Shown: in pieces, positions 28,641-53,629 of the stretch | Position numbering within the stretch: the stretch's first letter is position 1 | Layout of the letters: every line of letters begins with the position of its first letter | The notes under the pieces: model-generated | What the model was told of the DNA's origin: nothing | The model's database searches: none | The model's input: only the letters and a program-made list of their open reading frames with translations | Source of the DNA: Candidatus Latescibacterota bacterium | GTDB taxonomy: Bacteria; Latescibacterota; UBA2968; UBA8231 | Direction: 5' to 3' | Assembly (NCBI GenBank): GCA_965215195.1 | Contig: CBDCDC010000001.1 | Coordinates: 480,001 to 544,000, forward strand | DNA length: 64,000 nucleotides | Position numbers and translations under genes: made by a program

Positions 28641-29007
28641 AAGGCATCCTATCTTACGACATTTCTGTCGATAATATGAGGAAAATGACATTTTTGTAAA
28701 TATCAAAAAGCCACATATTCGTCGTCGAAAAGCGAAAAATCCACCAAAGATACAGGGATATGCGCCACAAGGGGCGTCATTTAAGCAAATGCAAAAGAAA
28801 CGTCGTACATTGTTGTAGCATAAACTATGCCATCGCAGATCGAGGTCCAAAAGATCCGCGGATACGGTGCGGCTCCTGCAGCCGCGAGAAGGTCATTGCC
28901 GCCGCAGGTTGCACGCTAGCAGCTTACCCCATGCTTGCGGTGCCGGATGGGTGCCCCTTTAGTCGCCCGTCCACCCTTTTGAAAGGCGGCAGGCCGCTGG
29001 GGAGTCA

Positions 29008-29982
29008 GTGTCCCCCTGTGCAAGAGTGGAGGGGGTTGATCTAAAAGCCAACGCCCGTACGAGAAAAATAACCTCTATCGCAGAAATGCGAGGAGGTTCT
29101 TCTCCTGATTTGGTATTCAGCGATAGGTTCAATGGCGAGCAACAGGCCGATGTTATCTATCACGAGTACACCCACGCCGTCATATACAAATTGCACGATC
29201 GCAACGTCGGCTCATCTGGACAAGGAGCAGCCCTTGGGGAAGCCGTAGCCTTTTACTTCCCTCAGTCGTTCCTCGATGACCCTCGACAGGAATCAGGCAC
29301 ACCCGATGAGTACGACCTCCTGTTTAACTTAAGGAAGTATCCAAGAGACTATAATAACACCACCTCAGCGCATCAGAGGGGTCTGATAGCAGCAGGGGCC
29401 GCTTGGGATCTTCGGGCTGACATAGGAGCGACCAAGACGGATAAAATCATCTTCGCCGCGATGGAGATGGACTCTCCCCGCGCCAATACCTTTGAGGAAT
29501 TTTACGACAATGTGCTGCTGGCCGACGACGACCTGTACGGGAATGGAACTTGGAACTGGCAGGGGTGTAGTCAAGGGGGCGACAAAAGTCCCCACGCCGG
29601 CGAAATATGGAAGGCCTTTGACGACAATCATGGAATGCCCTCCAGCCTGCTTGACGAAGATCCTGATTGTCCCTCCTCGAAGCCGCAAGCGCAAGGAGCG
29701 GCCGCCGATGCGGTCGAAGGGGCCTATCCCAATCCGTTCAATTCGTCCGTGCATCTGCGCTATCACCTCGACGAGCCGGGGCGGGTCGAGGTGGCTGTCT
29801 ATTCAACCACCGGCCAACTCATAAGACGCCTATCCTCCCACGAGCAGGCGCAGCCGGGGTCGTACTTGGTTGTTTGGGACGGGCAATCGGATGGGGGCAC
29901 ACCCGTTGCCAGCGGCGTGTACTTCGTGCGCGTGAAGTCGCCGAGCTTGGTCAAATCGTTCAAGCTCAGCCTGATTCGGTAG
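29008..29982 (+). pseudogene. N-terminally truncated M4/M36-type zinc metallopeptidase with a C-terminal FlgD-like domain
   Basis: DVIYHEYTH...ALGEA zinc motif; YPNPFN...WDG...ASGVYF domain; no signal peptide or propeptide; lower GC than neighbours. Confidence 0.6.
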
Positions 29983-34399: not shown

Positions 34400-35128
34400 A
34401 TGGAGAATAAGCAAAACATCGCCGAGCACAAGAGGCGCAACCGAGACATGTTCAACGCCATTGCCCGGCGCTACGATTTGCTCAATCACCTGCTCAGTGG
34501 CGGCGTAGATGTGTACTGGCGGCGGTGCGCCCTCGACTGCGCCTTGGGCTCCTCCCCGCAGCGCGTCTTGGACTTGGCTACCGGCACCGGCGATTTTGCC
34601 CTAGCGGCGGCGCGGTTGAGGCCGCAGCAGGTCGTCGGTATTGACATGGCCGTTGAGATGCTGCGGTTGGGTGCCGCCAAGGTCGCTGCCAAACGCCCGC
34701 CGATGCCGCTGGAACTCTTGGTCGGCGACGCCGAGCAGTTGCCGTTTCAGGAGGCCACCTTCGACTTGGTGACCGGGGCCTTTGGCGTGCGCAACTTTGG
34801 GCACATTCCCAGCGGCTTGGCCGAGGCCCACCGCGTCCTCAAACCCGGCGGCCAGATCTTGGTGCTCGACTTTTGCGAGCCGACTGCGCCGCTGTTTAGG
34901 CAATTGTACTTGTTTTACTTCCACAAAGTGCTGCCCCTGATCGGCGGCCTAATCTCCGGCCAGCGCCGGGCCTACGCCTATCTGCCGCGCTCGGTGGGGA
35001 CTTTTCCCCAAGGGCCGGCCTTTGTCGAATTGCTCGCCGCGGCTGGTTTCAGCCAAGCGCGCTACACGCCCATGACGCTGGGGATTGCCGCGGTGTACCA
35101 AGGCGTCAAAGGGCCGGTTGACGAATGA
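34400..35128 (+). CDS. menG: Demethylmenaquinone methyltransferase (UbiE/MenG)
   Basis: MFNAIARRYDLLNHLLS, LDLATGTGD, FGVRN, AYAYLPRS. Confidence 0.92.
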   Translation: MENKQNIAEHKRRNRDMFNAIARRYDLLNHLLSGGVDVYWRRCALDCALGSSPQRVLDLATGTGDFALAAARLRPQQVVGIDMAVEMLRLGAAKVAAKRPPMPLELLVGDAEQLPFQEATFDLVTGAFGVRNFGHIPSGLAEAHRVLKPGGQILVLDFCEPTAPLFRQLYLFYFHKVLPLIGGLISGQRRAYAYLPRSVGTFPQGPAFVELLAAAGFSQARYTPMTLGIAAVYQGVKGPVDE

Positions 35129-35168
35129 GATACCCATAGGTATTATGTACTAAACGCGGGAGAAATAA

Positions 35169-36293
35169 GTGATTTACGACGACCTTATCGGCCGCGCCGG
35201 CCTCGCAGATATCCACGACAAAGTGATGACCGGCCAGCGCTTGAGCTTGGACGATGGCTTGCGCCTGTACGCCTGCGACGAGCTGCCCATCTTGGGCTAT
35301 CTGGCCAATATCGTCCGCGAGCGCAAAAGCGGCGATATTGCGTACTACGTACGCAACCAGCACATCAACTACACCAACATCTGCAACAAGCTCTGCAAGT
35401 TCTGCTCCTTCTACGTCAAGCCCAAAGACGAGCGCGGCTACGTGTTGGCCCCCGAGCAGGTCGCCGCGCGCGTCGCCGAGTACGACCAAGCCCCGATCAC
35501 CGAGATCCACGTGGTCGGCGGCGTCAATCCCAAGCTGCCCTACCAATACTATCTCGACGTCTTGCAGGCCATGAAGCAAGCCCGCCCGGCCGCGCATCTG
35601 AAGGCCTTCACCATGATCGAGATCGCCCAGATCCAGCGCATCGCCAAAAAGCCGCTCGCAGAGGTCTTTGCCGATATGAAGGCGGCCGGGTTGGAGTCGT
35701 TGCCCGGCGGTGGGGCCGAGGTATTTAGCGATCGGGTCCAAGGCGACCTCTTCTGGACCAAGGCGGATTCCGAGGAGTGGCTGGAAATCGCGCAGGCGGC
35801 GCATCGAGCCGGCCTGCCCTCCAACGCCACCATGCTCTACGGTCACATCGAAAACACCTCAGAGAAGGTCTATCACCTCGTGCGGCTGCGCGAAGTGCAG
35901 GACGAGACCGGCGGTTTCCTCTGCTATATCCCACTCTCCTTCCACCCCGAGCGCACCGAGCTGGCGGACTTACCCGGGCCGACGGGTTGCCTAGACCTCA
36001 AGGAAATCGCCGTGGGGCGGCTGATGCTCGACAATTTCCCCCACGTCAAGACCTTTTGGATTATGAACACCATTGAGATTTCGCAAACCGCGCTCTGGTA
36101 CGGGGCCGACGATATCGACGGCACGGTCATGGACTACGAAATCACCCGCAAGAGTTTCACCCAGACCCAGCAGCGGCTGACCCAAGCCGAACTCGTGCAG
36201 CGCATCGTCGAGGCCGGGCGCCAGCCGCTAGAGCGCGACTCCCTCTACAATATCGTCGCCGATACCCCAGCTCTGCTGGCGGCGGCCGGATAG
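35169..36293 (+). CDS. mqnE: Aminofutalosine synthase (radical SAM)
   Basis: CNKLCKFC, EIHVVGG, LKAFT, SNATMLYGHIE, HVKTFW, GADDIDGT. Confidence 0.9.
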   Translation: MIYDDLIGRAGLADIHDKVMTGQRLSLDDGLRLYACDELPILGYLANIVRERKSGDIAYYVRNQHINYTNICNKLCKFCSFYVKPKDERGYVLAPEQVAARVAEYDQAPITEIHVVGGVNPKLPYQYYLDVLQAMKQARPAAHLKAFTMIEIAQIQRIAKKPLAEVFADMKAAGLESLPGGGAEVFSDRVQGDLFWTKADSEEWLEIAQAAHRAGLPSNATMLYGHIENTSEKVYHLVRLREVQDETGGFLCYIPLSFHPERTELADLPGPTGCLDLKEIAVGRLMLDNFPHVKTFWIMNTIEISQTALWYGADDIDGTVMDYEITRKSFTQTQQRLTQAELVQRIVEAGRQPLERDSLYNIVADTPALLAAAG

Positions 36294-36298
36294 CACCC

Positions 36299-37441
36299 GT
36301 GATCGCCGATATTGCCGACAAGGTCTATGCCGGGGAGCGCCTCGCGCTCGCTGATGCCCGCCGCCTGTACGCGCACCACAACCTCGCCGAGTTGGGGATG
36401 CTGGCGCATTGGGCGCGCCAGCAGAAACACCCCGAGCCGGTGGTCACCTACAACGTCGGGCGCAACATCAACTACACCAATGTCTGCTGGGTCAAGTGCG
36501 ACTTTTGCGCCTTCTACCGGCCGCCGGGTTCCAGCGAGGGCTACGTCTTGCCCAATGAGCAGATATTTGCCAAAATCGACGAGTTGGTGGCCTTTGGCGG
36601 CTACGAGCCTAAGTCCTGCGAAATTCTGATGCAGGGCGGCCTCAACCCCAAGCTGCGCCTCGATTACTACGAACAGTTGCTCTCGACGATCAGAGACCGC
36701 TATCCCGAGGTGCAGCTACACTGTCTTTCGGCCACGGAAATCATCTACATCGCGCATTTATCGCGGCTGCCGCTAGACGCGACCATTCGCCGCCTGCGCG
36801 ACGCCGGGCTGGATTCGATACCAGGGGCCGGGGCCGAGATTCTCAACGACGAGGTGCGCGACATTATCGGCTTTCGCAAGGACCGCACCGAAGAGTGGCT
36901 GGAAGTGCATCGCGTGGCGCACGGGCTGGGGATGCCCACTACGGCGACGATGATGTACGGCCACGTGGAGACGGTCGAACACCGTCTAGAGCACCTCAAC
37001 CACCTGCGGCAGCTACAGGACGAATGCGGTGGCTTCACCGCCTTTATCGCTTGGAATTTCCAGCCCGACCACACGGACTTGGGCGCGGACGCGACCCGCT
37101 GGAACGGCGCCAAAGCAACTGGGTACGACCACTTGCGCACGGTGGCCGTAGCGCGGCTCTTTCTCGACAATATCCCCAGCCTACAGGCCTCGTGGGTGAC
37201 CCAAGGGCCTAAAATCGCCCAAGTCAGCTTGCGCTACGGCGTCAACGACTTCGGCAGCACCATGCTCGAAGAAAACGTCGTCAGCGCCGCCGGCACCAGC
37301 CACACCAACGAGATGGGCTTGGATGCCATGGAACGGCTAATCCGCGCGGCCGGCTTTGCGCCGCAACGGCGCAACACCCGCTACGAGCCGGTGGCTTCCC
37401 CCTGTCGGATCGACGCTTTGCAAGAGGCCCTCCATTCATGA
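36299..37441 (+). CDS. mqnC: Dehypoxanthine futalosine cyclase (radical SAM)
   Basis: CWVKCDFCAFYR, MQGG, TATMMYGHVE, QASWVTQG, NDFGSTMLEENVV. Confidence 0.9.
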   Translation: MIADIADKVYAGERLALADARRLYAHHNLAELGMLAHWARQQKHPEPVVTYNVGRNINYTNVCWVKCDFCAFYRPPGSSEGYVLPNEQIFAKIDELVAFGGYEPKSCEILMQGGLNPKLRLDYYEQLLSTIRDRYPEVQLHCLSATEIIYIAHLSRLPLDATIRRLRDAGLDSIPGAGAEILNDEVRDIIGFRKDRTEEWLEVHRVAHGLGMPTTATMMYGHVETVEHRLEHLNHLRQLQDECGGFTAFIAWNFQPDHTDLGADATRWNGAKATGYDHLRTVAVARLFLDNIPSLQASWVTQGPKIAQVSLRYGVNDFGSTMLEENVVSAAGTSHTNEMGLDAMERLIRAAGFAPQRRNTRYEPVASPCRIDALQEALHS

Positions 37442-38232
37442 AGCCGCGCTTGGGCGCGGTCCCATACCTCAACACGCGGCCCCTCGTCGTTGCCCTCGAA
37501 TGCGACCCCGCACCTTTCGCATTGAGTTATGCGGTGCCCTCGCGCTGCGCGAGGGAACTGGCGGATGGCACCATTGACGTGGGGATCATTCCCGCGATCG
37601 AATATGCCCGCAACTCTCGCCTCTATTGGATCGTCCCCGAGATAGCCATTGGTTCGCAGGGGCCGGTGCTGACCGTGCGCCTCTTTTGCCGCCGTCCGTT
37701 GCCGCAGATCGAGCGCATAGCCCTCGACACCAGTTCCCGCACTTCAGTGGCTCTGTTGGCCATTCTCCTGCGCGAAAAATTCGCTCTCACCCCGCAATTG
37801 ATCGAAGCTCCGCCCGATCTGGAGGTCATGCTAGCTGCGGCTGACGCGGCCCTGCTCATCGGCGATCAGGTCTTCCCGCACTTGGACGGGGACTTGGAGA
37901 GCTTGGATTTGGGGCGGGAATGGACGGCCATGACCGATCTGCCTTTTGTCTTTGCCTTTTGGGCCGGTCGCCAGCAGGCACTCACACCCGCCCAAGTCCA
38001 ACAATTGCAGTGGGCCAAAGAGCAGGGGTTGTGCCAAGTGCCGTCCATCGCCGCAGCGTACAGTCGAGAATGCGGCGGCCCGCCCGAGTTCTACGAGCGC
38101 TACCTGACCCACCACATCCGCTTTGATTTGGACGAGGCCGCTCAAGCTGGTTTGCGGCTGTTCTATCAACTGGCTCACCGCCACGGCCTGATCGACGCGG
38201 TCCCCCGGCTGCGCTTTTATCCTGCGACCTGA
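37438..38232 (+). CDS. mqnA: Chorismate dehydratase
   Basis: VPYLNTRP, SSRTSV, LLIGD, DLGREW, LPFVFA. Confidence 0.9.
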   Translation: MKPRLGAVPYLNTRPLVVALECDPAPFALSYAVPSRCARELADGTIDVGIIPAIEYARNSRLYWIVPEIAIGSQGPVLTVRLFCRRPLPQIERIALDTSSRTSVALLAILLREKFALTPQLIEAPPDLEVMLAAADAALLIGDQVFPHLDGDLESLDLGREWTAMTDLPFVFAFWAGRQQALTPAQVQQLQWAKEQGLCQVPSIAAAYSRECGGPPEFYERYLTHHIRFDLDEAAQAGLRLFYQLAHRHGLIDAVPRLRFYPAT

Positions 38233-38265
38233 CCTAGGCCGCCTTTGTCGACGAGGAAGGTCGAG

Positions 38266-39153
38266 ATGGCTCTCTTGCAGGCCATTGCGGCGTACGGCCG
38301 CATGATCAAATTCTCCCACAGCGTCTTTGCCCTGCCTTTTGCCTTTAGCGGTGCCTTGCTGGCCGCGACGCACACTGGCATCACTCCGGCTCAGATCGGC
38401 TGGATTGCGCTGGCGATGGTCGGGGCGCGCAGCGCGGCGATGGGTTTTAATCGCCTCGTCGACCGCCACTTCGACGCGGCCAATCCCCGCACCCAAAACC
38501 GCGAACTGCCGCAAGGCGTGGTCTCGCCCCGGGCCGTGGGGGTGTTCGTGGTTCTGTCGGCCTTGGTCCTGGTCCTCGCCGCTCACCAGCTCAACCCGTT
38601 GTGCTTTTACCTGTCGCCGCTGGTTTTGGCCGTGCTCTTGTTCTACTCGCTGACCAAGCGCTTCACTTGGGCCTCCCACTTGGTTCTGGGGCTGAGTTTG
38701 GGCGGGGCACCGCTGGGCGCTTGGATTGCGGTCACCGGTGGCTTTGACCTCATCCCGCTGCTGCTCTGCTCGGGGGTGCTGGTTTGGGTGGCCGGCTTTG
38801 ACATCATCTACGCCTGCGGGGATCGCGCCTTTGACGTCCGGGCCGGGCTCCATTCTATCCCGGTCCGCTTTGGCATTGCCCGCGCCCTGTACATCGCCCG
38901 CGTTTTGCACCTCTTGTTCGTGGTGCTGCTGGTCCTCGTGGGCCGTGCGGCCGGCTTGAGCCTTTTGTATTGGTTGGGCGTAGTAGTGGTCGCCGGCTTG
39001 CTGGTGTACGAGCACCGGCTGGTGCGGACTGACGATCTGTCCCGCCTGAGCACGGCCTTTATGACGGTCAACAGCGCGGTCAGCCTGATCTACTTTGCCG
39101 CGATCTGGGCCGATCTGCTCGTCTTTGGCGAGGGGGAATTGCTGCGCTTTTGA
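38266..39153 (+). CDS. UbiA-like polyprenyltransferase of the futalosine pathway
   Basis: KFSHSVFALPFA, ARSAAMGFNRLVD, NPRT..RELP, YSLTKRF, GFDIIYA. Confidence 0.88.
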   Translation: MALLQAIAAYGRMIKFSHSVFALPFAFSGALLAATHTGITPAQIGWIALAMVGARSAAMGFNRLVDRHFDAANPRTQNRELPQGVVSPRAVGVFVVLSALVLVLAAHQLNPLCFYLSPLVLAVLLFYSLTKRFTWASHLVLGLSLGGAPLGAWIAVTGGFDLIPLLLCSGVLVWVAGFDIIYACGDRAFDVRAGLHSIPVRFGIARALYIARVLHLLFVVLLVLVGRAAGLSLLYWLGVVVVAGLLVYEHRLVRTDDLSRLSTAFMTVNSAVSLIYFAAIWADLLVFGEGELLRF

Positions 39154-39190: not shown

Positions 39191-40315
39191 TCAAAACGCC
39201 GTCTCGTAAAGCCGCAGGAAGTCCGCTTCTTGCAAGGGAAGCGGATTGAAGGCGCCGGTCCATTGGCCGGCGGCCTCTTGGGCCATAGCGGGTAGATCGC
39301 TTGCGGCGACTTGGCACTCGGCGAGCCGACGCGGTAGCTCCGCCCTAGCGCACAATTCTTCGAGGTGTGCGGCGAGCGCAAGGGTGCCGCCCTTGAGTTG
39401 GATTTCCGCGCAAAGCTCGCCGTATAAATCATCCACCACCAGGCCATTCAAGCGAACCACGTGCGGCAGCATCAGGGCCACGGCGCAACCGTGGGAGAGC
39501 GGGTAGCGGGCAGTGAGGGGGTTGGCGGTGGCGTGGGCCGCGCCGAGCATGGAGTTTTCGATGGCAGTGCCGGCTAGGTGGGCACCTAAAAGCATGGCGG
39601 CGGCGTTTTGGGGATCGGCGACAGCGGCCTCGTAGTGGGGCACTAGCAGCCGATAGGCTTGGCGGGCGAACATCTGCGAGAGGGGCGTGCGGCGGGTGGA
39701 GACGTAGCTTTCAACCGCGTGGGCGAGGGCGTCCATACCCGCGTCGGTGCGCACGCGCTGGGGAGCACTGGCCAGCAGGGTCGGGTCGAGGATGGCGACG
39801 TGGAAGCGCGCTTGGCGGGCACCGCAGGCCATTTTGGTGCCGTTGTCAGCGCAGGTAATCAGGGCGTAGGATTGGGCCTCGCTGCCCGTCCCGGCCGTAG
39901 TGGGGACGCCGATGGAGGGAAGCATGGGCTGGGTGGCTTTGCCGTAGCCTCGGTAGTCCTGCATTTGGCCGCCGTTGGTCAGCAGGAAATTGATGCCCTT
40001 GGCGCAATCCATAGCACTGCCGCCGCCCAAGGCGACGATCAGGTCAATGGGTCCGTGGGCGCGGGCGTGGCGGACGCCGGCGGCTACGTGTTCGGTCGTG
40101 GGGTTTTCCGCTATGGAGGCGAAGGGGGTCGTCGCTAGCCCGGCGCGTTGCAGGGCGCGGCTTGCCCGGTCGGCGAGGCCGGCTTGCACGAGGCCGGGGT
40201 CGGTTACGAGCAAGGCGCGGGGGCCGGCCAATGCACTGGCGAGGTCGCCTAGCTGGTCGAGGATCCCGGCACCAAAGACCACGCGGATGGACGGATCAAA
40301 GTCGAAAGGGGTCAT
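39191..40315 (-). CDS. Iron-containing alcohol dehydrogenase
   Basis: GGGSAMDCAK, PTTAGTGSE, DALAH, GAAHA, HG. Confidence 0.9.
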   Translation of the reverse strand: MTPFDFDPSIRVVFGAGILDQLGDLASALAGPRALLVTDPGLVQAGLADRASRALQRAGLATTPFASIAENPTTEHVAAGVRHARAHGPIDLIVALGGGSAMDCAKGINFLLTNGGQMQDYRGYGKATQPMLPSIGVPTTAGTGSEAQSYALITCADNGTKMACGARQARFHVAILDPTLLASAPQRVRTDAGMDALAHAVESYVSTRRTPLSQMFARQAYRLLVPHYEAAVADPQNAAAMLLGAHLAGTAIENSMLGAAHATANPLTARYPLSHGCAVALMLPHVVRLNGLVVDDLYGELCAEIQLKGGTLALAAHLEELCARAELPRRLAECQVAASDLPAMAQEAAGQWTGAFNPLPLQEADFLRLYETAF

Positions 40316-41709
40316 CCGGCCCAGCACTGCAAGGCGCGCTGCTGGTAGAGGAAGTCGAAGAGGTTGCCCTCGTGCGGTTGCTCCCAAGCGATTTGGTGGG
40401 TGGGGATCGGGCCGAGGTTGAGGCGCTCGATGTGGGGTGCGGCGAGCAGTTGGCGCGTCAGGTGCTCGTCCTCAGTGAGGGCGGTAGCCACCAGCGTCGG
40501 GCCAATGCGTGCGACCACTTCCTCTTGCGGGACTTCGACGACTGCGGCGAAAGGAAAGAGATATTCGGTATTGGCCAGCGGATGTTGCCAGTCGGGAGCG
40601 TGGATCAAGGTCGGGTTGAGGAAGGTGCAGCCGCCGCTCTCGGCGATGCGTTCGCCTTGGCCTCTGGCCGTGTCCTCGGCTGAGTCGCCGAGCTGGACGT
40701 CGATTAGGGCCGAGAGCTGGCGCACTCCTGCGGGATTGGGGAAGGCGGCGATCTGGGCTTGGGGATCGTCGAGGGGACGGGCTTGGATTTGGCTCAGGCA
40801 CTCGCCGAGAGCGGCGGCTATTTCGCGGCCGCGGGCGGGCACCCATACGCCCGAGGCGTTGAGGCAGGAGCGGCCCCCATTGGCGGCGATTGAGGCGACC
40901 ATGAGGTCGAGGTAGTGGTCCCACTGGTCGATTTTGTCCGCGCCGATGATAATCTTGCTGCGCCCCGGTCCGTGTAGCTGGACGCGAGGATCGTCGCGAT
41001 AGGGGGCAACGGTGGGACCGCCGCCAAACAGCAGCGAGCGACCGCAGCCGAGCAGGATTTCCGTGCTGCCGCCGTGGTCGGTTGGGTAGTAGCTCAGGGC
41101 GTAGGGCGGGCAGCCGGCCGCGATCAGGGCTTGGGCGATGCGGTGGGGGGTCCACGGCTCTTCGCGGCCCGGCTTGAGCACCAGCGGGATCTTGAGCGGG
41201 ATGGCCGGCAACCACAGCGCGTGGACGCCGGGCGAATTGCTGGGCAGGACGCAGCCGAGGGCGTGGGCGTGGGGCACAAAGTGGAGCGGGCGTGGGCCAT
41301 CGTCGAGAACGGTCAGGTCCAAGCCGCGGGTCAGGCCGCTGAGCACGGCGGGCATTTCCGTGCCGACGCGGTGGATTTTGTCCATGTTGGCGCGGGCCAG
41401 TGCCTGCGGCAGGCCGGTGGTGGCCGAGACTTGCGCGACATAGTCGTCCGGGGTTTGGCCATCGTCGCCTAAAGGCAGTTCGGCGCGCAAGAAGAGGTCG
41501 GCGGCTCGTTGGCAAATGGCGACCAATTCGGCGACAGTGAGGGCTTGCAGTGCCTGGCGGTTGCGCTCTTGGGCAGCTAAGTCGCGGGCAATCAGGCCGC
41601 GGTTGGCTTGGCTGACTTGAGCTAGGGGTTGGCCGGTGGCGATGTGGGCGACGGCGAGGCGGTCGAGGCTGGCGTAGGGCTGACCGGCGCGGAGGAGGGG
41701 TAGGTGCAT
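40312..41709 (-). CDS. ALDH-fold acyl reductase (GriD/LuxC-like)
   Basis: PSNSPGVH, LKPG, HGPGRSK in place of ELGGK, NGGRSCLN catalytic Cys, EYLFP. Confidence 0.75.
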   Translation of the reverse strand: MHLPLLRAGQPYASLDRLAVAHIATGQPLAQVSQANRGLIARDLAAQERNRQALQALTVAELVAICQRAADLFLRAELPLGDDGQTPDDYVAQVSATTGLPQALARANMDKIHRVGTEMPAVLSGLTRGLDLTVLDDGPRPLHFVPHAHALGCVLPSNSPGVHALWLPAIPLKIPLVLKPGREEPWTPHRIAQALIAAGCPPYALSYYPTDHGGSTEILLGCGRSLLFGGGPTVAPYRDDPRVQLHGPGRSKIIIGADKIDQWDHYLDLMVASIAANGGRSCLNASGVWVPARGREIAAALGECLSQIQARPLDDPQAQIAAFPNPAGVRQLSALIDVQLGDSAEDTARGQGERIAESGGCTFLNPTLIHAPDWQHPLANTEYLFPFAAVVEVPQEEVVARIGPTLVATALTEDEHLTRQLLAAPHIERLNLGPIPTHQIAWEQPHEGNLFDFLYQQRALQCWAG

Positions 41710-41784
41710 GGGTTTGGGTTTCAGATTGGAGTTGGAATGAGCCGTTGTGGTCTATAAGCGTTGAGCGAGCTTAGAACTCACCCC

Positions 41785-42861
41785 TCAGTACACTCCCACC
41801 ACCACCGACTCCTGCAACTCCGTCAGCAGGCGCAGGTCTTTAACCCCATCCCAAGGATACGCATCAATCGGCGCGGCGCGTTCGGCCTCGTCGCGCTCGA
41901 GGAAACGGGGCATGAAAAATTCCTTGGTCAGGGTGGTGAGCATGACTTGGCCGGTCTCGCCGTAGCCGACCTTGCGCGAGGAGTCTTTGGGATCAACCAG
42001 TTCGATGACGGCGCGTGGTTGCGGCGGGTAGTAGGTGATGGCGTATTCGTCAGCCGGATCAAAGGGCTTGGGGCAGGCCAAGCCCATCAGGGTGTTGCCG
42101 TAGGTGGGGACAAAGGCGAGGCCGGGCACCAACTCCTCGCGGGCGAAGCGGTGGAACTGGGCGTTCATTTCCGTGCCGCCGCAGAAGATGCCCTTAACGC
42201 CTAACTTGGGCAGGGAGACTTTTTCGCAGAGGGCTTCGAGGAGGCGGGGGGTGGTGAAGACGCACTGCACGTTGTCGTGGGCTTTGAGGATTTTGAGCGC
42301 CTGATCGACGACGTGGGCCTTGTAGGCTTCGAGTTCGCGCATCTTGCCAGCGCGGATGAGTTCGTTGACCCAGCGCGGATCGAGATCGACCATAAAGCAC
42401 AAGCCGCCGCGGAGTTGGGCCAAGTACTCGATGGCTAGGCGCAGGCGGCGCGGCCCCGAAGGCCCCAGCATCAGCCAGTCGGCCCCCTTGGGAAAACCCG
42501 CCTCGGATAGGCTCTCGCTGTAGAGCGCGTAATCGGTTTGAAAGTCGCGGATGTTGATGCGGTACTTGGGCAAGCCGGTCGAGCCGCCCGTCTCGAAGAC
42601 GTAGATCGGCTCGGCCGCGTAGGCTTTGGGCACCCACTGGCGCACTGGGCCGCCGCGCAGGCACTCGTCCTCAAAGTGGCCGAGCAGGGCCAAGTCGGCA
42701 TAGGAGCGGATTTTCTCGCGCGGGTCAAAGTCGAGCCGCTGTGCGTAGGAGAGCCAAAACGGGCAGCCGGTCGCGGGGCTGAAGTGCCACTCGACGATGG
42801 TGCGGACGTGGGCGTCGAGCCCGGCGCGGGCCGCGGCAATTTTATCGGGGGCGACGCTCAT
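41785..42861 (-). CDS. Short adenylate-forming protein (GriC/EhpF/LuxE-like)
   Basis: ETGGSTGLPK P-loop, GGT, YGNT, ERD. Confidence 0.7.
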   Translation of the reverse strand: MSVAPDKIAAARAGLDAHVRTIVEWHFSPATGCPFWLSYAQRLDFDPREKIRSYADLALLGHFEDECLRGGPVRQWVPKAYAAEPIYVFETGGSTGLPKYRINIRDFQTDYALYSESLSEAGFPKGADWLMLGPSGPRRLRLAIEYLAQLRGGLCFMVDLDPRWVNELIRAGKMRELEAYKAHVVDQALKILKAHDNVQCVFTTPRLLEALCEKVSLPKLGVKGIFCGGTEMNAQFHRFAREELVPGLAFVPTYGNTLMGLACPKPFDPADEYAITYYPPQPRAVIELVDPKDSSRKVGYGETGQVMLTTLTKEFFMPRFLERDEAERAAPIDAYPWDGVKDLRLLTELQESVVVGVY

Positions 42862-44285
42862 TGGCGCTCTTCCGCGATGGCGAAGAGGGTGTTGCGCGAG
42901 GCGATGTACAGCACACCATCGCGGGCGACCGGCGTGGTGTACACGGCACTACCCAGATTGGTTTCCCGTAGTACTTCGAGCGTTTTGCCAGCCTTGAGCA
43001 CATCGACGTCGCCGTCCTCGTCGCCGATATAGACCTTGCCGTCGGCGACAAAGGGCGAGCCCCAGATCGCGGCGAAGGTGTCGTGGGTCCAGTGGTGGGT
43101 GCCGGTCTTGGCGTCGAGGCAATAGACGAAGCCGCTTAGGTCGGCCGCGTAGAGCAGGCCGTCGGCAATGGCGACCGTGGAGATGGTGCGATTGTAGTTT
43201 TCGCCGCCGAAGTGCCAGACTGCGCCCGTCTCGGTGATGTCGCCGGTGCCGCTGGCGTCAATGGCCCACAGGTGCCCTTCGCCTTCGCCGTGCTCGGGGT
43301 CTTGGCCGACGCCGAGATAGACTACTCCGTCGTGAAAAACGGGCGTTGAGACGAGGTTGTTGCGGGTGCCGCGCCCGCCCAATTCCCAGACCGAATCCTT
43401 GGGGTTGCAGTCGAATTTCCAGATCAGCTCGCCGCTGTCGGGCGCGAGGGCATAGACCCAACCGTCGCCGCCGGGGAAGATCACCTGCTTGCGGCCACCA
43501 GCTTCGCCGTAGGCGGGGTTGGACCATTGGCCGTGCAAAATCTGGTCGCCGGGCAGGTCGCTGTCCCAGAGGAGTTGGCCGGTCTGCATGTCGAGGGCGA
43601 TGAAGCTGGGGGCAAAGGGGGCGGGAATGTGGACGTGGCCCTCATCGACTCCGTTGCTGGTCAGGGCGAAGAGGCGACCATCAACGCCCAAGGGCGAACT
43701 GGTGGCGAGGTTGTGGGGGAAGACGTCCAACTCGGCGATCATGTCGAATTTCCAGATCAGATCCGCGTTGGTGGGCGCGGTGGCGGTTTCATCGGCGATG
43801 GGGCCGTCGTTCTCGCCGTCGCGGAAGCCCTCGGTGTCGAGGCATACGACTTCGGCGCGATTGGAGACGTAGTAGAGGCGGTCCCCTTCGACATAAGGGG
43901 TGGAGCAGACGCCCTGCTGCGGCCAGTCGTTGACGCGGCCGGCCGGCAGCTTGGGATGGGCGATTTGCCAGAGGAAGGCTCCGTCCTCTAAGGAAAAGGC
44001 CATGACCACGCCGCGATCGCCCTTGTGGCTGGGATCGCGCTCGGCTTGGTTGTTGGTGCCGACGAAAATTTTGTCGCCGGCGATCAGGGGCCCGGCATAG
44101 GTCTGCGAGCCGAGGGTGGCCCGCCACTTGACGTTTTCGCCGGTCTCGATGTCCCAAGTGGTGGGTAGGTTTTTCTCGTCCGAGGCTTGGTTGCGACTCA
44201 GCGAGCCGCCCCACATCGCGGTTTGGGCACCGGCCGAGGCGGTTAGGACGAGGATGAGGATGAGGCTGCGCGTAGCTGTAGGCAT
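42858..44285 (-). CDS. Secreted PQQ-binding-like beta-propeller protein
   Basis: Signal peptide; repeated G..xW blades, STP/SSP motifs. Confidence 0.85.
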   Translation of the reverse strand: MPTATRSLILILVLTASAGAQTAMWGGSLSRNQASDEKNLPTTWDIETGENVKWRATLGSQTYAGPLIAGDKIFVGTNNQAERDPSHKGDRGVVMAFSLEDGAFLWQIAHPKLPAGRVNDWPQQGVCSTPYVEGDRLYYVSNRAEVVCLDTEGFRDGENDGPIADETATAPTNADLIWKFDMIAELDVFPHNLATSSPLGVDGRLFALTSNGVDEGHVHIPAPFAPSFIALDMQTGQLLWDSDLPGDQILHGQWSNPAYGEAGGRKQVIFPGGDGWVYALAPDSGELIWKFDCNPKDSVWELGGRGTRNNLVSTPVFHDGVVYLGVGQDPEHGEGEGHLWAIDASGTGDITETGAVWHFGGENYNRTISTVAIADGLLYAADLSGFVYCLDAKTGTHHWTHDTFAAIWGSPFVADGKVYIGDEDGDVDVLKAGKTLEVLRETNLGSAVYTTPVARDGVLYIASRNTLFAIAEERQ

Positions 44286-46426
44286 TACCAAACTTTCAGG
44301 TTGTCGTAGTAGATTTCGGCCGGAGAATAGCCGTAGATGCCGGGGCTGCCGCTGAGGTTGGGCAGGGGATCGACCGCTTGGATGCTCCACGCGGTCGGCT
44401 CCGGCTCGCCGCGGGGCCAGACCTTGCCGCGAATACGGGCCTTATCGCCCTCGATTTCCACCTGCATCTTCATGGTGTACCAGACGCCAGTTTCCCAAGC
44501 GAAGGGCACGGTTTGGGCCATCCGCAGCTCGGCGGCCCAAGTGCGGACCTGCAACTGCTGGTGGTAGCCCATTAGGTCGAGGGTGTAGCGATGCGCGATC
44601 AGGCCCATGTCCGGGACGGCGCGGCGCTTCTTGGTGCCGAGCAGGTCGGCTTGGATGGTGTAGCCGGCCATGTCGGGTGCGCCGAGATAGGTGTTGGCGC
44701 GGTGCAGGCCGCGGGCCGCGGGCGGTTTGACCAGCACCTTGTTGCCTTGTACTTCGCGCACCTTGAATTTGCTGCCCGTGCCGACCCAAGCTGGTGAGGC
44801 GTCGGCCGCGAATCCCTCGAAGGCTTCGCTGTAGATCGGCGGCGGCAGCACGGCAACGCGCGCCTCGGCAGCCAATTCACCTGCGCTGGCGACGATTTTG
44901 CCGCCGCTGGGTGCGTCCGCGAGCACGAGCACATTGCCGTCGAGTTGGCCGATCGGACCAGCGAGTGTCCATTCGGCCGCAACCGGGCCGATCAGGCGGC
45001 CCTGCGCGTCGAAGGCCCGGGCGCGCAACGACACGCGAGCCCCGGGCTGGGTTACTACTTCAGCGGGGATGATTTGCAGGTGCGCCGGGATTGCGCTTGG
45101 GGGAGCTTGCTCGCGTGGGTAGTTGGCTGCGGTCGCTGCGACCTTGAACGGAGCCTCTGGGTCGCCGAGGCAGTAAACGCCAGCTTCGGTGGAAAGGTAG
45201 ATGCGGCCGTAGGCTACGGCCGGCGAGCCGAACAGCTCGGCTGGGCGGCCGTCGGGCATGGCGATCTCGGCGAGGTTGAGGGTCTGGGCTTGGTCGCGGC
45301 CGGGAGCGACGATGGCGAAGCGACCGTTGACCTCTGGTGCGTAGAGCCGGCCGTCGGCCCACACGGGCGATCCCTTGCCGACGGTGCCGATGTTGTGGAC
45401 CCAGTGTACTTGGCCGCTGGCGGCGTCGAGCGCGTGGATGTTGGCCGAGTTGTCGATGATGTACAAGCGACCGTCGTAAAAGACCGGGCTGCTGTAACCG
45501 GCGAAGACGCCGTCGTAGCGCCAGACTTCGCGGCCGGTGGCGTCGATGCACACGACGCGGCCGAGGGCGGTGTTGTCGAGGTTTTCTTCGCTGTGGGCCG
45601 CGTACACCTTGTCGCCAGCGACGACGACCGAGGAGTTGATGCCGCGCCGACTGAGCGCAAAGCCCCACACCGTCTCGCCCGTGCGGATTTTCAGGGCATA
45701 GATGGAGCCGTCGGCGTTGCCGGCGATGAGCAGGCGCACGCCGTTGATGGTGGCGACGACGGGTACTGAGTACGTGGTGTCGAGGGGCCGGCCCCCCGGG
45801 GTGGCGATCCAGACGACTTCGCCGCTGCGCTTGTCAAAGGCGAAGTAGCGATGGCGGCCCGGGGTGTGGCTGCCCCAATTGGAGCTGAGGTAGCTGATGA
45901 TGACGAGGTCTTCATCGACGACGGGCGTGTGGATGCGGCCGCCGTAGCCGGAGATGCGCCCGAACTCCTCGGTCAGCGAGCGCGACCAGACGACCTTGCC
46001 ATCGCGGTCGAAGCAAAAGAACAGCCCGCTGACGGTGTGGCCATAGACATAGCCGGTCTCTGGGTCGCCAGCGAGGCTGGCCCAGCCGACGCGGTTGAAG
46101 GGGATGGTGGTGTGGAAGATGTTGTAGGCGTACTCCCACAGCGGGGTGCCGTCTTGGGCGTCAAAAGCGGCGACGACGCCTTCCTCCGCGATGCCCTCGC
46201 CGCGCCGGCCAATGACAAAGACCCGGCCATTGAGGACGATGGGGGTCGAGCGGCCGGTGAATGCGGCGTGCCAGATAGGCGACCAAGATGCGACGAGGCC
46301 GGTCTCTTCGGAGACGCCGTTTTGCGCTGGGCCGCGCCAAGAGGGCCAGTCGGCTGGGTAGGCGCTGGAAGTGGCGAACAGGAGGCCAAGAAGGGCGTAG
46401 GGAAGTTGCAAGCGGAGGTTGGACAC
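44285..46426 (-). CDS. Secreted PQQ-like beta-propeller with probable C-terminal Ig-like and ConA/lectin-like domains
   Basis: ADWPSWRGP start, propeller blades, C-terminal WYTMKM..RGKVW..EP..W..PGIYG. Confidence 0.8.
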   Translation of the reverse strand: MSNLRLQLPYALLGLLFATSSAYPADWPSWRGPAQNGVSEETGLVASWSPIWHAAFTGRSTPIVLNGRVFVIGRRGEGIAEEGVVAAFDAQDGTPLWEYAYNIFHTTIPFNRVGWASLAGDPETGYVYGHTVSGLFFCFDRDGKVVWSRSLTEEFGRISGYGGRIHTPVVDEDLVIISYLSSNWGSHTPGRHRYFAFDKRSGEVVWIATPGGRPLDTTYSVPVVATINGVRLLIAGNADGSIYALKIRTGETVWGFALSRRGINSSVVVAGDKVYAAHSEENLDNTALGRVVCIDATGREVWRYDGVFAGYSSPVFYDGRLYIIDNSANIHALDAASGQVHWVHNIGTVGKGSPVWADGRLYAPEVNGRFAIVAPGRDQAQTLNLAEIAMPDGRPAELFGSPAVAYGRIYLSTEAGVYCLGDPEAPFKVAATAANYPREQAPPSAIPAHLQIIPAEVVTQPGARVSLRARAFDAQGRLIGPVAAEWTLAGPIGQLDGNVLVLADAPSGGKIVASAGELAAEARVAVLPPPIYSEAFEGFAADASPAWVGTGSKFKVREVQGNKVLVKPPAARGLHRANTYLGAPDMAGYTIQADLLGTKKRRAVPDMGLIAHRYTLDLMGYHQQLQVRTWAAELRMAQTVPFAWETGVWYTMKMQVEIEGDKARIRGKVWPRGEPEPTAWSIQAVDPLPNLSGSPGIYGYSPAEIYYDNLKVW

Positions 46427-46638
46427 GGCTAGTCCTTGGTAGAGCGGGAATGGAGGTTAAACATTTAGGTACGCCCGGGTGCCTTGGATTGTAGGAAATA
46501 ACGATCGTTACCCACGAGGAGCACCAACGTCTGAACGATGCCTAACATTAGGTACATAAAAAGGCTGCCAATCCTTGTCAATTAGCGGCCCGGTGTGCAA
46601 CTTGTCCGAGTCCATTCAAATAGGAGGATTTAGAAGCT

Positions 46639-50217: not shown

Positions 50218-51102
50218 ACCAATGGTGCTAGTGAGTTGACCGTGGTCAAGGTAGTTCCTACGCTGAGGGTATCCCCCCTTTCAGCGAAGGAGCGTCCCAT
50301 GACCACGGCCGAGTTTATAATAGCCCTGTTCTGTCGAATCGACCACCAGATGGGCGATGTGCCCAAACACCCCCAAGCCGCCTTATATCCCAGCGAAACG
50401 GTGACCTTGGCGGTTCTGTATGCGCTCAAAGGGGGCGGCAAACGGGCGTTTTATCGCTGGGTAGCGCGCGATTGGCGCGCCTTTTTTCCGCGCCTGCCCG
50501 AGCGCACCCGCTTGTTCCGCCTGTTTGCCGCCCATGCGGACTGGACCGATCGCTTTCGAGCGGACCCCACCCCTTTAGGCGTGATCGATAGCTATGGCAT
50601 CGAGTTGATCCATCCAGTACGCGAAGGCCGCTCCGCTCACCCTATCGGCCGGAAAGGGCGGTCCAATCACCGCTGGATCGTCGGCGGCAAGCTGGGCTTG
50701 ATCGTCAACCAATGGGGCTTGATCGTCGATTGGGATTGTAATACCGCCAATGTCCACGATACGGTCTTTCACCCGATGATTGGCCGCTACGAAGAGCAGA
50801 TGATCCTCCTCAGCGACCAAGGCTTTCATGCCAAAGCCGGTGATCCGGCCAATCTGAAAGTGTGTCCCCGCAAAACGTGGGGCGAGCGTATGGTCATCGA
50901 GACCGTCTTTTCCATGCTGACCCGCATCGGGCACTTCAAGCGACAGACCCATCGAGCCTGGGCCTACTTTAGAGCGCATCTGAGCTTTGCCATGGCCACC
51001 TTCAACCTGCTGGTTCAGTGGCACGGGTTGCAACCCGATGAAAATGGATTCGTCCGCTTGTCCATCGCGGAATTTAGCTTGTAGCCCACTAGCACCATTG
51101 GT
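50218..51102 (+). mobile_element. IS982-like insertion sequence, 885 bp
   Basis: Perfect 16-bp TIRs ACCAATGGTGCTAGTG / CACTAGCACCATTGGT; 5-bp TSD TAATA at 50213-50217 and 51103-51107. Confidence 0.88.
50299..51084 (+). CDS. DDE transposase
   Basis: FPRLPERTRLFR, VIDS, GGKL, ANVHD, SDQGF, RMVIETVFS. Confidence 0.88.
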   Translation: MTTAEFIIALFCRIDHQMGDVPKHPQAALYPSETVTLAVLYALKGGGKRAFYRWVARDWRAFFPRLPERTRLFRLFAAHADWTDRFRADPTPLGVIDSYGIELIHPVREGRSAHPIGRKGRSNHRWIVGGKLGLIVNQWGLIVDWDCNTANVHDTVFHPMIGRYEEQMILLSDQGFHAKAGDPANLKVCPRKTWGERMVIETVFSMLTRIGHFKRQTHRAWAYFRAHLSFAMATFNLLVQWHGLQPDENGFVRLSIAEFSL

Positions 51103-53443: not shown

Positions 53444-53629
53444 GGCATGTTTTTGCGGTTTAGAGTGAAGAGCTGACCGGATCGAACGCACTTTAGGCGA
53501 TGCGCTATCGCCGTATCAGCGCATTAAAAGGCCCTTTACAAGGTGGATGGAACACACGGATTTTAGCCTGGGCATAGTCCCAACTCGCCTGTTGCATCGG
53601 TGCGTATTCTGTCTATTGTCGCAGTGCCC

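Follow-up and report, generated by a model that had tools for sequence, protein, structure and literature searches.

Organization of the locus

Within the window (the whole stretch of DNA analysed here, 64,000 nucleotides), the ORF list places five co-directional open reading frames on the minus strand between positions 39191 and 46426 (Table 1). The original prediction described these as a five-gene operon with overlapping starts and stops, and the junctions, read directly from the sequence, bear this out: genes 1 and 2 meet in TAATG, with a TAA stop and a 1-nucleotide stop/start overlap at 44285, and ATGA joins genes 2 and 3 at 42858–42861 and genes 4 and 5 at 40312–40315. Genes 3 and 4 are separated by a 75-nucleotide gap. 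On the basis of the start/stop overlaps, we assigned the starts of genes 2 and 5 to internal ATG codons rather than to the starts of the respective longest ORFs. The intergenic region between gene 1 and a divergent DUF362 gene presumably holds the operon promoter region; a scan for consensus promoters and terminators returned no promoter-like site within it, and over the scanned region as a whole such sites were no more numerous than in shuffled sequence. Genes for scaffold biosynthesis of the PhzA–G or GriI/GriH type were likewise not found among the 21 flanking ORFs of the window, in agreement with the claim that none lie nearby.

Table 1 Features of the five-gene operon and its upstream region.
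Feature	Position	Strand	Length and basis
Propeller 1 (gene 1)	44285..46426	-	713 aa; Pfam PQQ_2, AlphaFold, Foldseek
Propeller 2 (gene 2)	42858..44285	-	475 aa from ATG at 44285; longest ORF 42858-44390
EhpF/GriC-type adenylating subunit (gene 3)	41785..42861	-	358 aa; PDB EhpF match
EhpG/GriD-type reductase subunit (gene 4)	40312..41709	-	465 aa; aldehyde dehydrogenase fold
Iron-containing alcohol dehydrogenase (gene 5)	39191..40315	-	374 aa from ATG at 40315; longest ORF 39191-40387
Intergenic region, propeller 1 / divergent DUF362 gene	46427..46638	.	212 bp

Two secreted propellers of the BamB type

Genes 1 and 2 encode secreted BamB/PQQ_2-type propellers of eight blades rather than PQQ dehydrogenases. 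Both match Pfam PQQ_2 (135 and 94.5 bits, respectively) and, on reading of the sequence, both start with a basic–hydrophobic–AxA-type leader, which coincides with low-confidence parts of the predicted structures (residues 1–22 of propeller 1 and 1–20 of propeller 2). Because neither leader contains a Cys, the propellers are probably not lipoproteins. They had been described as PQQ-like secreted propellers, of which the propeller fold and the leader stand and the PQQ type does not. Three specific identities were tried and rejected for genes 1 and 2: PQQ alcohol dehydrogenase (TIGR03075; 40.9 and 45.9 bits versus a cut-off of 480), PQQ dehydrogenase (TIGR03074; 20.6 and 18.3 bits versus 833) and BamB orthology (TIGR03300; 64.9 and 80.3 bits versus 285.2).

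The AlphaFold model of propeller 1 (pLDDT 90.2, pTM 0.90) comprises the leader, an eight-bladed propeller (residues ~25–430), a small beta domain (~449–526) and a C-terminal beta-sandwich (~555–712); its best Foldseek matches were BamB (E 3e-17), and the C-terminal part had no Pfam match at E ≤ 0.01. Propeller 2 (pLDDT 85.5) was also closest to BamB in Foldseek (E 2e-24), and VIA gave YxaL (Z 38.1), BamB (Z 35), Rv3035 (Z 32.9) and tetrathionate hydrolase (Z 31.4). Both proteins thus share the fold of these cofactor-less eight-bladed PQQ_2-type propellers. Unlike these reference proteins, however, propeller 1 bears two extra beta domains, and the long loops of propeller 2 hold numerous invariant His, Asp and Glu residues (alignment A2, 30 sequences), with invariant loop positions at R117-P122, P190-H-N192, D214, H217, H251, Q328-G333, H338 and H358.

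A putative two-component carboxylate reductase and an iron alcohol dehydrogenase

Gene 3 scores barely above the cut-off for Pfam AMP-binding (30.6 bits), and its residues 16–358 of 358 align to residues 21–366 of 366 of EhpF (PDB 3l2k/3hgu; E 4e-44). Identity to the EhpF-like protein encoded in an ehp-like phenazine cluster is 33% (E 9e-58). By these alignments, gene 3 is a full-length EhpF relative and, as predicted, a member of the ANL family, one that lacks the usual C-terminal domain. The two motifs first noticed in it, ETGGSTGLPK and YGNT, are both present, and ETGGSTGxPK and TYGNT are invariant in 28/28 aligned adenylase sequences. Annotations of its relatives read arylcarboxylate reductase, phenazine biosynthesis protein or AMP-binding protein (29 plasmid relatives, 33–38% identity) and arylcarboxylate reductase (Streptomyces relatives); in the one Streptomyces context examined (L103), the adenylase is followed by a polyketide synthase rather than by an aldehyde-dehydrogenase-fold gene. 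A Pfam search at E ≤ 0.01 assigned neither gene 3 nor gene 4 to the LuxE or LuxC family.

Gene 4 matches Pfam Aldedh (48.2 bits) and shares 28% identity across its whole length (E 2e-41) with an EhpG-like protein, the product of the next gene after the EhpF-like gene in the ehp-like phenazine cluster; among ordinary aldehyde dehydrogenases in the PDB, none did better than E 7e-10. It was predicted to keep the catalytic Cys while carrying HGPGRSK in place of the general-base motif, and both features were confirmed, with the Cys lying within NGGRSCLNASG. Across the family (alignment A3, 27 sequences), Cys282, Asn158, Lys179, Glu382 and Phe385 are invariant, and His246 occupies the position of the general-base Glu of ordinary aldehyde dehydrogenases in 27/27 sequences; nucleotide-binding elements are kept in gene 4. 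The EhpG-like protein shares the Cys and the GPGR(S/A)K and PG(V/I)HALW signatures and likewise has no general-base Glu, although it has Gln where this clade has the invariant His. The absent Glu and the EhpG-like relative indicate a protein other than the ordinary oxidizing type, as originally proposed: with no Glu to hydrolyse the thioester, the thioester would instead be reduced to the aldehyde. In principle, His246 itself might act as a base and so permit an oxidizing reaction.

The complex of genes 3 and 4 was predicted with a score of 0.72, versus 0.00 for the best of three controls; the pass mark used is reached by 116/157 solved complexes and 2/215 mismatched pairs, a calibration that is only approximate here because the prediction ran on custom-built alignments. 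Runs agree on at least 68% of contacts, with a partner pLDDT of at least 89, and the predicted interface joins invariant residues of the adenylase (E209, Q235, F239, E243 and L244) to invariant residues of the reductase (S14, N36 and G38). This model supports binding of the two proteins to each other. Phenazine clusters and a haloarchaeal plasmid show the same gene order, with the aldehyde-dehydrogenase-fold gene after the adenylase, and the reductase lies within reach of the adenylase in 41 of the 59 loci with at least 3 kb downstream.

These comparisons uphold the proposed GriC/GriD–EhpF assignment and suggest that genes 3 and 4 probably form a two-component carboxylate reductase like GriC/GriD and EhpF/EhpG. 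The resemblance to EhpF/EhpG of the D-alanylgriseoluteic acid (phenazine) pathway extends to an adenylase of the same length, aligned end to end and also without a C-terminal domain, and to an aldehyde-dehydrogenase-fold gene directly after it, but the window lacks phenazine scaffold genes. The likeness to GriC/GriD of Streptomyces griseus, from the grixazone pathway, is one of description and of the relatives' annotation: as summarized in PMC10179220 (citing Suzuki 2007), the AMP-binding protein GriC makes acyl-AMP, which its ALDH-like partner GriD reduces to the aldehyde. A search of this genome for the 3,4-AHBA-forming GriH gene of that pathway (PF01959) found none, and a control search matched in three archaea.

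Nocardia-type carboxylic acid reductases are single polypeptides with adenylation, carrier and reductase domains. By analogy, the net chemistry would be the same ATP- and NADPH-dependent conversion of acid to aldehyde, but the present pair lacks both a carrier domain and a phosphopantetheine arm, and its reductase adopts the aldehyde dehydrogenase fold, with a Cys in the active site.

Gene 5 matches Pfam Fe-ADH (153.2 bits; cut-off 31.3) and ADH_Fe_C (121.9 bits; cut-off 27), and GGGS and DAL-H motifs can be read in its sequence. No NCBIfam equivalog cut-off was reached, the best match being ErcA (255.6 bits versus a cut-off of 550). An orthologue adjoins the reductase in 93/131 genomes of the class sample.

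Co-inheritance across genomes

The gene set was expected to be conserved together, and this holds across phyla, extending to genomes in which the genes are unlinked. The window's phylum was represented by 168 genomes. Of these, 98 carry the adenylase, 96 the reductase (96/98 adenylase-positive and 0/70 adenylase-negative genomes), 99 a single orthologue of propeller 1 and 98 a HemN-like radical SAM enzyme; apart from fragmented assemblies, these four genes occur in the same genomes. In one genus, propeller 1 is retained even though it lies 0.4–1.2 Mb from the adenylase. A GT4 glycosyltransferase follows the same pattern in the family, occurring in 47/49 adenylase-positive and 0/27 adenylase-negative genomes. 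In Acidobacteriota (n = 61), the adenylase and propeller 2 are each found in 15 genomes, and these are identical; the count includes the unpublished genome G225 and becomes 14/60 without it. Linkage is looser there: among the best 80 loci, the propellers adjoin the adenylase in only 3/32 Acidobacteriota and the reductase is within reach in 15/27. Of five Acidobacteria with no such partners beside the adenylase, every one has them elsewhere in the genome. A word search for this reductase clade gave at least 8000 scored candidates, all at E ≤ 1e-5, the best 120 of which are 73–94% identical.

These distributions bear on the idea that the operon tailors some lineage-specific secondary metabolite (such as a phenazine, aminophenol or metallophore) and that the propellers are unrelated neighbours. 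All characterized relatives, GriC/GriD and EhpF/EhpG, come from antibiotic or pigment pathways, the siderophore-type TonB receptor is part of the extended locus described below, and the distribution among genera is uneven, with 21 of the 49 in the phylum carrying the system. We nonetheless regard this idea as very unlikely, given that co-inheritance of propellers and adenylase holds in two phyla whether they are linked or not, that no scaffold genes were found in the window, nor a GriH-type gene in the genome, and that the adenylase is single-copy and 61–77% identical between phyla, which is unusual for secondary metabolism. This clade is far more conserved than EhpF/EhpG and, unlike them, is tied to secreted propellers, the HemN-like radical SAM enzyme and GT4. 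A literature search returned no description of this reductase and propeller combination, and the pairing of a carboxylate reductase with co-inherited secreted propellers seems to be undescribed.

A second locus and a larger system

The strict co-inheritance of further genes implies that the operon is one part of a larger system, and a second locus of this genome carries the system's other genes. These other members are the GT4 glycosyltransferase, the HemN-like radical SAM enzyme, more secreted propellers, a siderophore-type TonB receptor, a sodium:solute symporter and a PaaK-like ligase, next to which lie a flavin oxidoreductase and a 4HBT thioesterase. The TonB receptor recurs in four other loci among those examined, the flavin oxidoreductase in two and the symporter in one; these genes, like the thioesterase, were seen in few lineages only. 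In Acidobacteriota, the gene order runs from the reductase to GT4 and on to an ABC ATPase and a MacB/FtsX-type permease.

This order, and the co-inheritance of GT4 with the adenylase, would suit a role in cell-envelope biogenesis, in which a lipid-like or other alcohol produced by the reductase and the alcohol dehydrogenase is glycosylated by GT4 and exported, with the propellers serving as periplasmic placement scaffolds rather than as enzymes. Both propellers are closest to BamB in fold, propeller 2 additionally resembles Rv3035, and Rv3035 with FecB is described as a periplasmic complex that supports an arabinofuranosyltransferase (PMC13041763). Such a role is nevertheless unlikely: the adenylase is homologous to aromatic-acid enzymes and not to fatty-acyl AMP ligases, the LuxE/LuxC search was negative at its threshold, the invariant loop His, Asp and Glu of propeller 2 exceed what a plain scaffold needs, and the siderophore-type TonB receptor and solute symporter favour import over export.

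The second-locus flavin enzyme resembles the cofactor maturases QhpG, LodB and GoxB (QhpG 136.5 bits versus a cut-off of 240). In one Poribacteria genome, a MauG/CCP-type gene lies beside the radical SAM gene.

In the Pseudomonas ethanol oxidation system, a periplasmic propeller occurs alongside an aldehyde dehydrogenase, an ANL enzyme and an ErcA-like Fe-ADH. The analogous set of folds found here could suggest oxidative catabolism, with propeller dehydrogenases oxidizing an alcohol or amine, gene 4 oxidizing the aldehyde and the adenylase activating the resulting acid, a scheme with which the ErcA match of gene 5, the maturase-like flavin enzyme and the Poribacteria MauG/CCP-type neighbour would all be compatible. 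We consider it quite unlikely, however, because the general-base Glu is replaced in every reductase sequence aligned, the adenylase is an EhpF relative without the C-terminal domain needed for thioester formation, the propellers fall far below the PQQ-dehydrogenase cut-offs and are most like BamB, and no cytochrome c partner was found in the operon.

A proposed acid-to-alcohol route

We favour, as the probable explanation, an ATP- and NAD(P)H-dependent route from acid to aldehyde to alcohol inside a co-inherited two-compartment system, of which the cytoplasmic trio (genes 3–5) would form one arm and which would be gained and lost as a unit. This explanation draws on family membership, gene order, co-inheritance and the predicted complex; from these we infer the direction of the reaction, the substrate class, the import and glycosylation steps and any role of the propellers. 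In the proposed route, an aromatic or heteroaromatic carboxylate would be handled by the periplasmic propellers and then imported, tailored in the cytoplasm, reduced to the alcohol and probably glycosylated. For the reduction, the adenylase would form the acyl-adenylate, the docked gene 4 protein would accept the acyl group as a thioester on Cys282 and reduce it to the aldehyde using NAD(P)H, and the iron alcohol dehydrogenase would turn the aldehyde into the alcohol. An aromatic acid substrate is suggested only by structural homology to EhpF and by the names of relatives.

Against this route, the cytoplasmic enzymes and the secreted propellers occupy different compartments, and the scaffold genes of the known pathways were not found, neither phenazine genes in the window nor a GriH-type gene in the genome.

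A more specific and tentative possibility places the operon at the centre of an undescribed multi-phylum system. Its cytoplasmic enzymes (the carboxylate reductase, the alcohol dehydrogenase, the radical SAM enzyme and the glycosyltransferase) would produce or recycle a small (hetero)aromatic cofactor, metallophore or signal that the secreted propellers need, and the invariant His/Asp/Glu face of propeller 2 would bind it or a metal. If this is true, the cofactor-less PQQ_2 propellers would gain a dedicated ligand pathway.

In Acidobacteriota, Planctomycetota, Poribacteria and Latescibacterota, few unexplained secreted proteins are as common as PQQ_2/BamB-type propellers. Here, two such propeller families are tied by strict co-inheritance to what would be acid activation, the formation of an aldehyde and then an alcohol, and probably glycosylation, which makes propeller function testable through the substrate of the reductase pair. 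GriC/GriD-type reductases, so far from antibiotic and pigment pathways, would thereby include a very widespread, highly conserved clade that probably has a housekeeping-like or ecological role.

A compact five-gene operon with unrelated flanks

Five tandem ORFs on the window's minus strand encode two propellers (genes 1 and 2), an adenylase (gene 3), a reductase of the aldehyde-dehydrogenase fold (gene 4) and an iron-containing alcohol dehydrogenase (Fe-ADH, gene 5). Direct reading of the junctions confirmed the start/stop overlaps claimed in the original prediction, and because of these overlaps the starts of genes 2 and 5 were placed at ATGs within the longest ORFs (giving 475 and 374 amino acids, respectively). 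In Pfam, genes 1 and 2 matched PQQ_2, gene 3 matched AMP-binding (30.6 bits versus a cut-off of 29.9), gene 4 matched Aldedh (48.2 bits) and gene 5 matched Fe-ADH with ADH_Fe_C; none of the five genes reached an NCBIfam cut-off. Both flanks are unrelated to the operon. A convergent futalosine-type menaquinone gene set lies 3', an adjacency that we treat as chance because no such genes occur in the conserved set of 80 related loci; a divergent DUF362 gene, a mutarotase-like gene and an AcuI/YhdH-type reductase lie 5', a trio that recurs in the locus sample in the closest relatives only. Eukaryote-like repeat proteins, such as the leucine-rich-repeat/dockerin type also encoded in the window, are typical of sponge symbionts.

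A promoter and terminator scan of the operon region gave no signal above shuffled sequence. In RNA libraries, contigs 90–99% alike from four metatranscriptome runs of three studies spanned 20–27 of 30 operon bins, with one contig bridging the propeller 1/propeller 2 junction; as these are relatives' sequences with possible DNA carry-over, we take them as a mere hint that relatives express the operon.

Coordinates of the operon, the second locus and other features (window positions unless a contig or compared locus is named)
Feature	Position	Strand	Description
Operon	39191-46426	-	Genes 1-5
Gene 1/gene 2 junction	44285	-	TAATG; stop and start share one base
Gene 2/gene 3 junction	42858-42861	-	ATGA
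Gene 3/gene 4 junction		-	Separated by 75 nt
Gene 4/gene 5 junction	40312-40315	-	ATGA
Menaquinone set	34400-39153	+	UbiE-type methyltransferase, two CofH/MqnC-like radical SAM genes, MqnA-like (VitK2_biosynth), UbiA prenyltransferase
Repeat protein	51533-53491	-	652 aa; dockerin domain and numerous leucine-rich repeats
Transposase-like ORF	50236-51084	+	DDE_Tnp_1_3, 31 bits; GC falls here from ~0.64 to 0.55
FlgD_ig ORF	29008-29982	+	Weak type IX secretion C-terminal sorting domain, 26.3 bits versus a 27-bit cut-off
Two sigma-54 activators	27096-28850, 32991-34355		Near the FlgD_ig ORF
Second locus	G000 (window's genome), second contig, C2:3927454-3950000 (L096, L106)	one strand	Ten entries, in order below
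Second locus 1			Third propeller
Second locus 2			HemN-like radical SAM enzyme
Second locus 3			Two further PQQ_2 propellers
Second locus 4			TonB-dependent siderophore receptor (TIGR01783, 243 bits versus a cut-off of 223.5)
Second locus 5			PaaK-like ligase
Second locus 6			Flavin enzyme (oxidoreductase); resembles halogenases, QhpG and geranylgeranyl reductases, all below cut-offs
Second locus 7			Uma2-type gene, probably an insertion
Second locus 8			Sodium:solute symporter
Second locus 9			GT4 glycosyltransferase
Second locus 10			4HBT thioesterase
MauG-family gene	L097:8580-9848 (Poribacteria locus)		Di-haem cytochrome c peroxidase/MauG family; directly 5' of radical SAM and PaaK-like genes

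An EhpF/EhpG-type adenylase and reductase pair

Genes 3 and 4 are of the same kind as EhpF/EhpG (phenazine) and GriC/GriD (grixazone), with catalytic residues kept, and the kinship originally proposed was upheld by both a PDB match and identities to phenazine-cluster proteins. Gene 3 matched EhpF over its full length (residues 16–358 against 21–366 of 366, E = 4e-44), the only match in the PDB search, and plasmid tblastn returned 29 relatives at 33–38% identity, annotated as arylcarboxylate reductase, phenazine biosynthesis protein or AMP-binding protein. An ehp-like phenazine cluster carried by an E. coli plasmid has an EhpF-like gene and, immediately 3' of it, a gene of the aldehyde dehydrogenase family; the first encodes a protein 33% identical to gene 3 (E = 9e-58) and the second one 28% identical to gene 4 over 458 columns (E = 2e-41), whereas gene 4 matched no ordinary aldehyde dehydrogenase in the PDB better than E = 7e-10. 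A Burkholderia phenazine cluster and a haloarchaeal plasmid show this adenylase-then-reductase order too, the plasmid with a sodium:solute symporter 5' of the pair. According to PMC10179220, in passages that cite Suzuki et al. 2007, GriC makes an acyl-AMP, which GriD reduces to the aldehyde.

The anticipated motifs were present: gene 3 contains ETGGSTGLPK and YGNT, and gene 4 contains HGPGRSK as well as NGGRSCLNASG, with its Cys. Across 28 orthologues, gene 3 had a mean column identity of 75% with invariant ANL motifs. An alignment of 27 orthologues bore out that gene 4 retains its catalytic Cys and has its general-base motif replaced, with Cys282, Asn158, Lys179, Gly229, Glu382, Phe385 and His246 all invariant. 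Gene 4 and its phenazine-cluster counterpart share PG(V/I)HALW, GPGR(S/A)K and the catalytic Cys. An oxidative route is a rival reading of the pathway; both proteins lack the general-base Glu of oxidizing aldehyde dehydrogenases, carrying His (gene 4) or Gln (phenazine-cluster protein) instead.

The two proteins are predicted to form a complex, scoring 0.72, 0.73 and 0.72 in three runs, where the highest of three controls scored 0.00. Among solved complexes 116 of 157 reach the pass mark, as do 2 of 215 mismatched pairs, calibration counts that hold only roughly here because author-built alignments were used. At least 68% of contacts were common to the runs, and partner pLDDT was at least 89. 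The predicted interface would join adenylase residues 209–213, 233–244 and 272–273 with reductase residues 14–16 and 34–45, and family-invariant residues lie within it (adenylase E209, Q235, F239, E243 and L244; reductase S14, N36 and G38).

An atlas search with the adenylase returned unnamed or AMP-binding clusters only. Longer forms bearing Aldedh, PQQ_2, symporter or other domains amounted to 16 proteins, 15 of them single-member clusters and the symporter form a cluster of three; none was counted as a fusion because both that were inspected contained frameshift-type junk. We likewise rejected an 833-aa adenylase–reductase 'fusion' in one genus as an out-of-frame open stretch in high-GC DNA. 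Two Acidobacteria genomes (G170 and G168) carry a second, more divergent adenylase–reductase pair (loci L092 and L093; 58% and 48% identity), and their main adenylase adjoins a GT4 gene, with no reductase there.

Secreted eight-bladed propellers

Propellers 1 and 2 both begin with a Sec-type leader, as read from sequence, and AlphaFold modelled each as eight-bladed (pLDDT 90.2 and pTM 0.90 for propeller 1; 85.5 and 0.88 for propeller 2). The nearest structures were BamB and other PQQ_2 proteins, with genuine PQQ alcohol dehydrogenases ranking below them; these fold searches returned generic eight-bladed propellers only and gave no functional clue. Both propellers fell under the HMM cut-offs for BamB and for PQQ dehydrogenases alike. 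In its model, propeller 1 has an additional small beta domain and a C-terminal beta-sandwich, and its C-terminal 284 residues gave only a chance-level match to Pfam. In propeller 2, the loops between blades are long and rich in polar residues that do not vary across 30 sequences (53% mean column identity), including RVNDWP, PHN, D214, H217, HGxW, QDPEHG, H338 and WH; together they resemble a face for catalysis or for binding a metal or ligand.

Co-inheritance across phyla despite variable linkage

A word-based protein search returned at least 8,000 candidates for gene 3 at E ≤ 1e-5, the best 120 being 73–94% identical, and 587 stretches encode a gene 3 relative when one genome is taken per species. 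The culturable Sulfidibacter corallicola M133 is among the carriers of the locus. Among the best 80 of these 587 loci, physical linkage of the operon genes varies, as the neighbourhood counts indicate.

Identity to gene 3 and operon-gene neighbourhood among the best 80 of 587 loci (phylum labels from record titles; counts require at least 4 kb upstream for propellers, and at least 3 kb downstream for the reductase and 6 kb for Fe-ADH)
Group	Identity to gene 3	Both propellers upstream	Reductase downstream	Fe-ADH downstream
All		35/66	41/59	16/50
Latescibacterota, or older Gemmatimonadetes labels	71-95%	15/15	11/12	8/12
Poribacteria	74-77%	8/8	6/7	2/6
Calditrichota	72-74%
Acidobacteriota	63-70%	3/32	15/27	2/22
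Planctomycetota	61-66%	7/7	4/6	1/3

The cross-phylum neighbourhood analysis proposed originally supports the association, as co-inheritance was constant even though linkage varied (80 loci, 168 genomes of the window's phylum and 61 Acidobacteriota): inheritance of the secreted propellers, radical SAM enzyme and GT4 strictly tracks that of the cytoplasmic enzymes. Within the 168 genomes, the adenylase (98), reductase (96) and propeller 1 (99) are each single-copy, and their genome sets are identical save for two genomes with the adenylase at a contig end and no reductase found (G118 and G066) and one fragmented assembly carrying a piece of propeller 1 (G095). Propeller 1 is still retained in one genus in which it lies 0.4–1.2 Mb from the adenylase, and adenylase and reductase are 0.5 Mb apart in one genome (G139). 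The radical SAM enzyme, also present in 98 of the 168, follows the adenylase set save for its absence from G147 and presence in G095, and it was found in five of five genomes tested from other phyla (53–63% identity), at times solitary. Fe-ADH adjoins the reductase in 93 of 131 genomes of a class sample. GT4 was present in 47 of 49 adenylase-positive versus 0 of 27 adenylase-negative genomes of the family, and the two exceptions are 75% and 77% complete.

Five Acidobacteria were picked whose adenylase locus shows neither reductase nor propellers. All five encode elsewhere a reductase orthologue (48–53% identity) and exactly one clear propeller 2 orthologue (55–59%, next paralogues at most 38%), in propeller loci that run from propeller 1 to propeller 2 with an Fe-ADH and a third propeller next in three of five. 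Among 61 evenly drawn Acidobacteriota, adenylase and propeller 2 occur in the same 15 genomes (14 of 60 without the unpublished genome G225), several of which carry them on separate contigs or 0.8 Mb apart.

In an adenylase tree of 28 rows, author-picked from the 80 loci plus two paralogues, the window and a close relative cluster with Poribacteria (support 97/96), apart from another Latescibacterota sequence, and a marine/sponge group is split from a soil Acidobacteriota group. This grouping suggests that the system has passed between phyla to some extent.

Local variants accompany this distribution. Same-genus relatives (L002, L004–L007 and G146) have 4–13 kb of other genes between adenylase and reductase, including one that resembles TonB-receptor genes and a small ORF of 91 aa, and the window's form is compact. 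At 14 loci mostly labelled Acidobacteriota (L034, L036, L039, L043, L044, L048, L051, L060, L064, L066, L067 and L074–L076), Vut_1, a YhhQ-type vitamin/queuosine-precursor transporter, lies just 5' of the adenylase on the same strand, directly adjoining it in 11 by rough gene calls; with no Vut_1 gene in the window's genome, we did not accept it as a core member. Poribacteria loci carry two to four Laminin_G_3 genes 5' of the operon (L011–L017 and L024), and in L012–L017 and L024 the operon also has a small Vgb-lyase/PQQ_2-like gene, with a sulfatase too in five.

A second locus extends the system

Relatives have a third propeller and a HemN/ChuW-like radical SAM enzyme 3' of the reductase; in the window's genome both sit on the other contig. 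The third propeller is a true PF13570 member (206 bits versus a cut-off of 133), and the radical SAM enzyme fell below every NCBIfam cut-off (best HutW, 201 bits versus 400). The genes of this second locus lie within ~10–25 kb of the adenylase in most same-genus genomes. GT4 is directly 3' of the reductase in many Acidobacteriota and accompanies a 63% identical symporter at a Calditrichia locus. The PaaK-like ligase is 5' of propeller 1 in seven of seven Planctomycetota loci, sits beside the radical SAM gene in one Poribacteria genome and lies close to it in a distant Latescibacterota genome. The receptor, flavin enzyme, symporter and thioesterase were found in few lineages only. By analogy, the MauG-family gene and the QhpG/LodB-like flavin enzyme faintly echo maturation systems for protein-derived quinone cofactors.

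Discussion

The carboxylate-reductase chemistry expected of the gene 3/gene 4 pair is already known. Literature searches on EhpF/GriC-type two-component carboxylate reductases turned up Streptomyces gene-cluster papers and one EhpR paper, none describing this clade, and no curated NCBIfam model covers gene 3 or gene 4. Four traits of the clade are new: very high conservation, the invariant His, the lack of a scaffold pathway, and the obligatory association with PQQ_2 propellers, a HemN-like radical SAM enzyme and GT4. Envelope biogenesis and secondary-metabolite tailoring are further rival readings of such a system.

On our preferred reading, of an acid-reducing pathway, the acid would be adenylated and then handed to Cys282, and the thioester would be reduced to the aldehyde because there is no Glu for thioester hydrolysis. 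Gene 5 would turn the aldehyde into the alcohol, which GT4 may glycosylate. An aromatic or heteroaromatic acid is the probable substrate, given the known relatives together with the PaaK-like ligase, 4HBT thioesterase and flavin hydroxylase-like enzyme, and it may be imported, in view of the TonB receptor and symporter. The propellers would act in the periplasm on the substrate, a precursor or the product.
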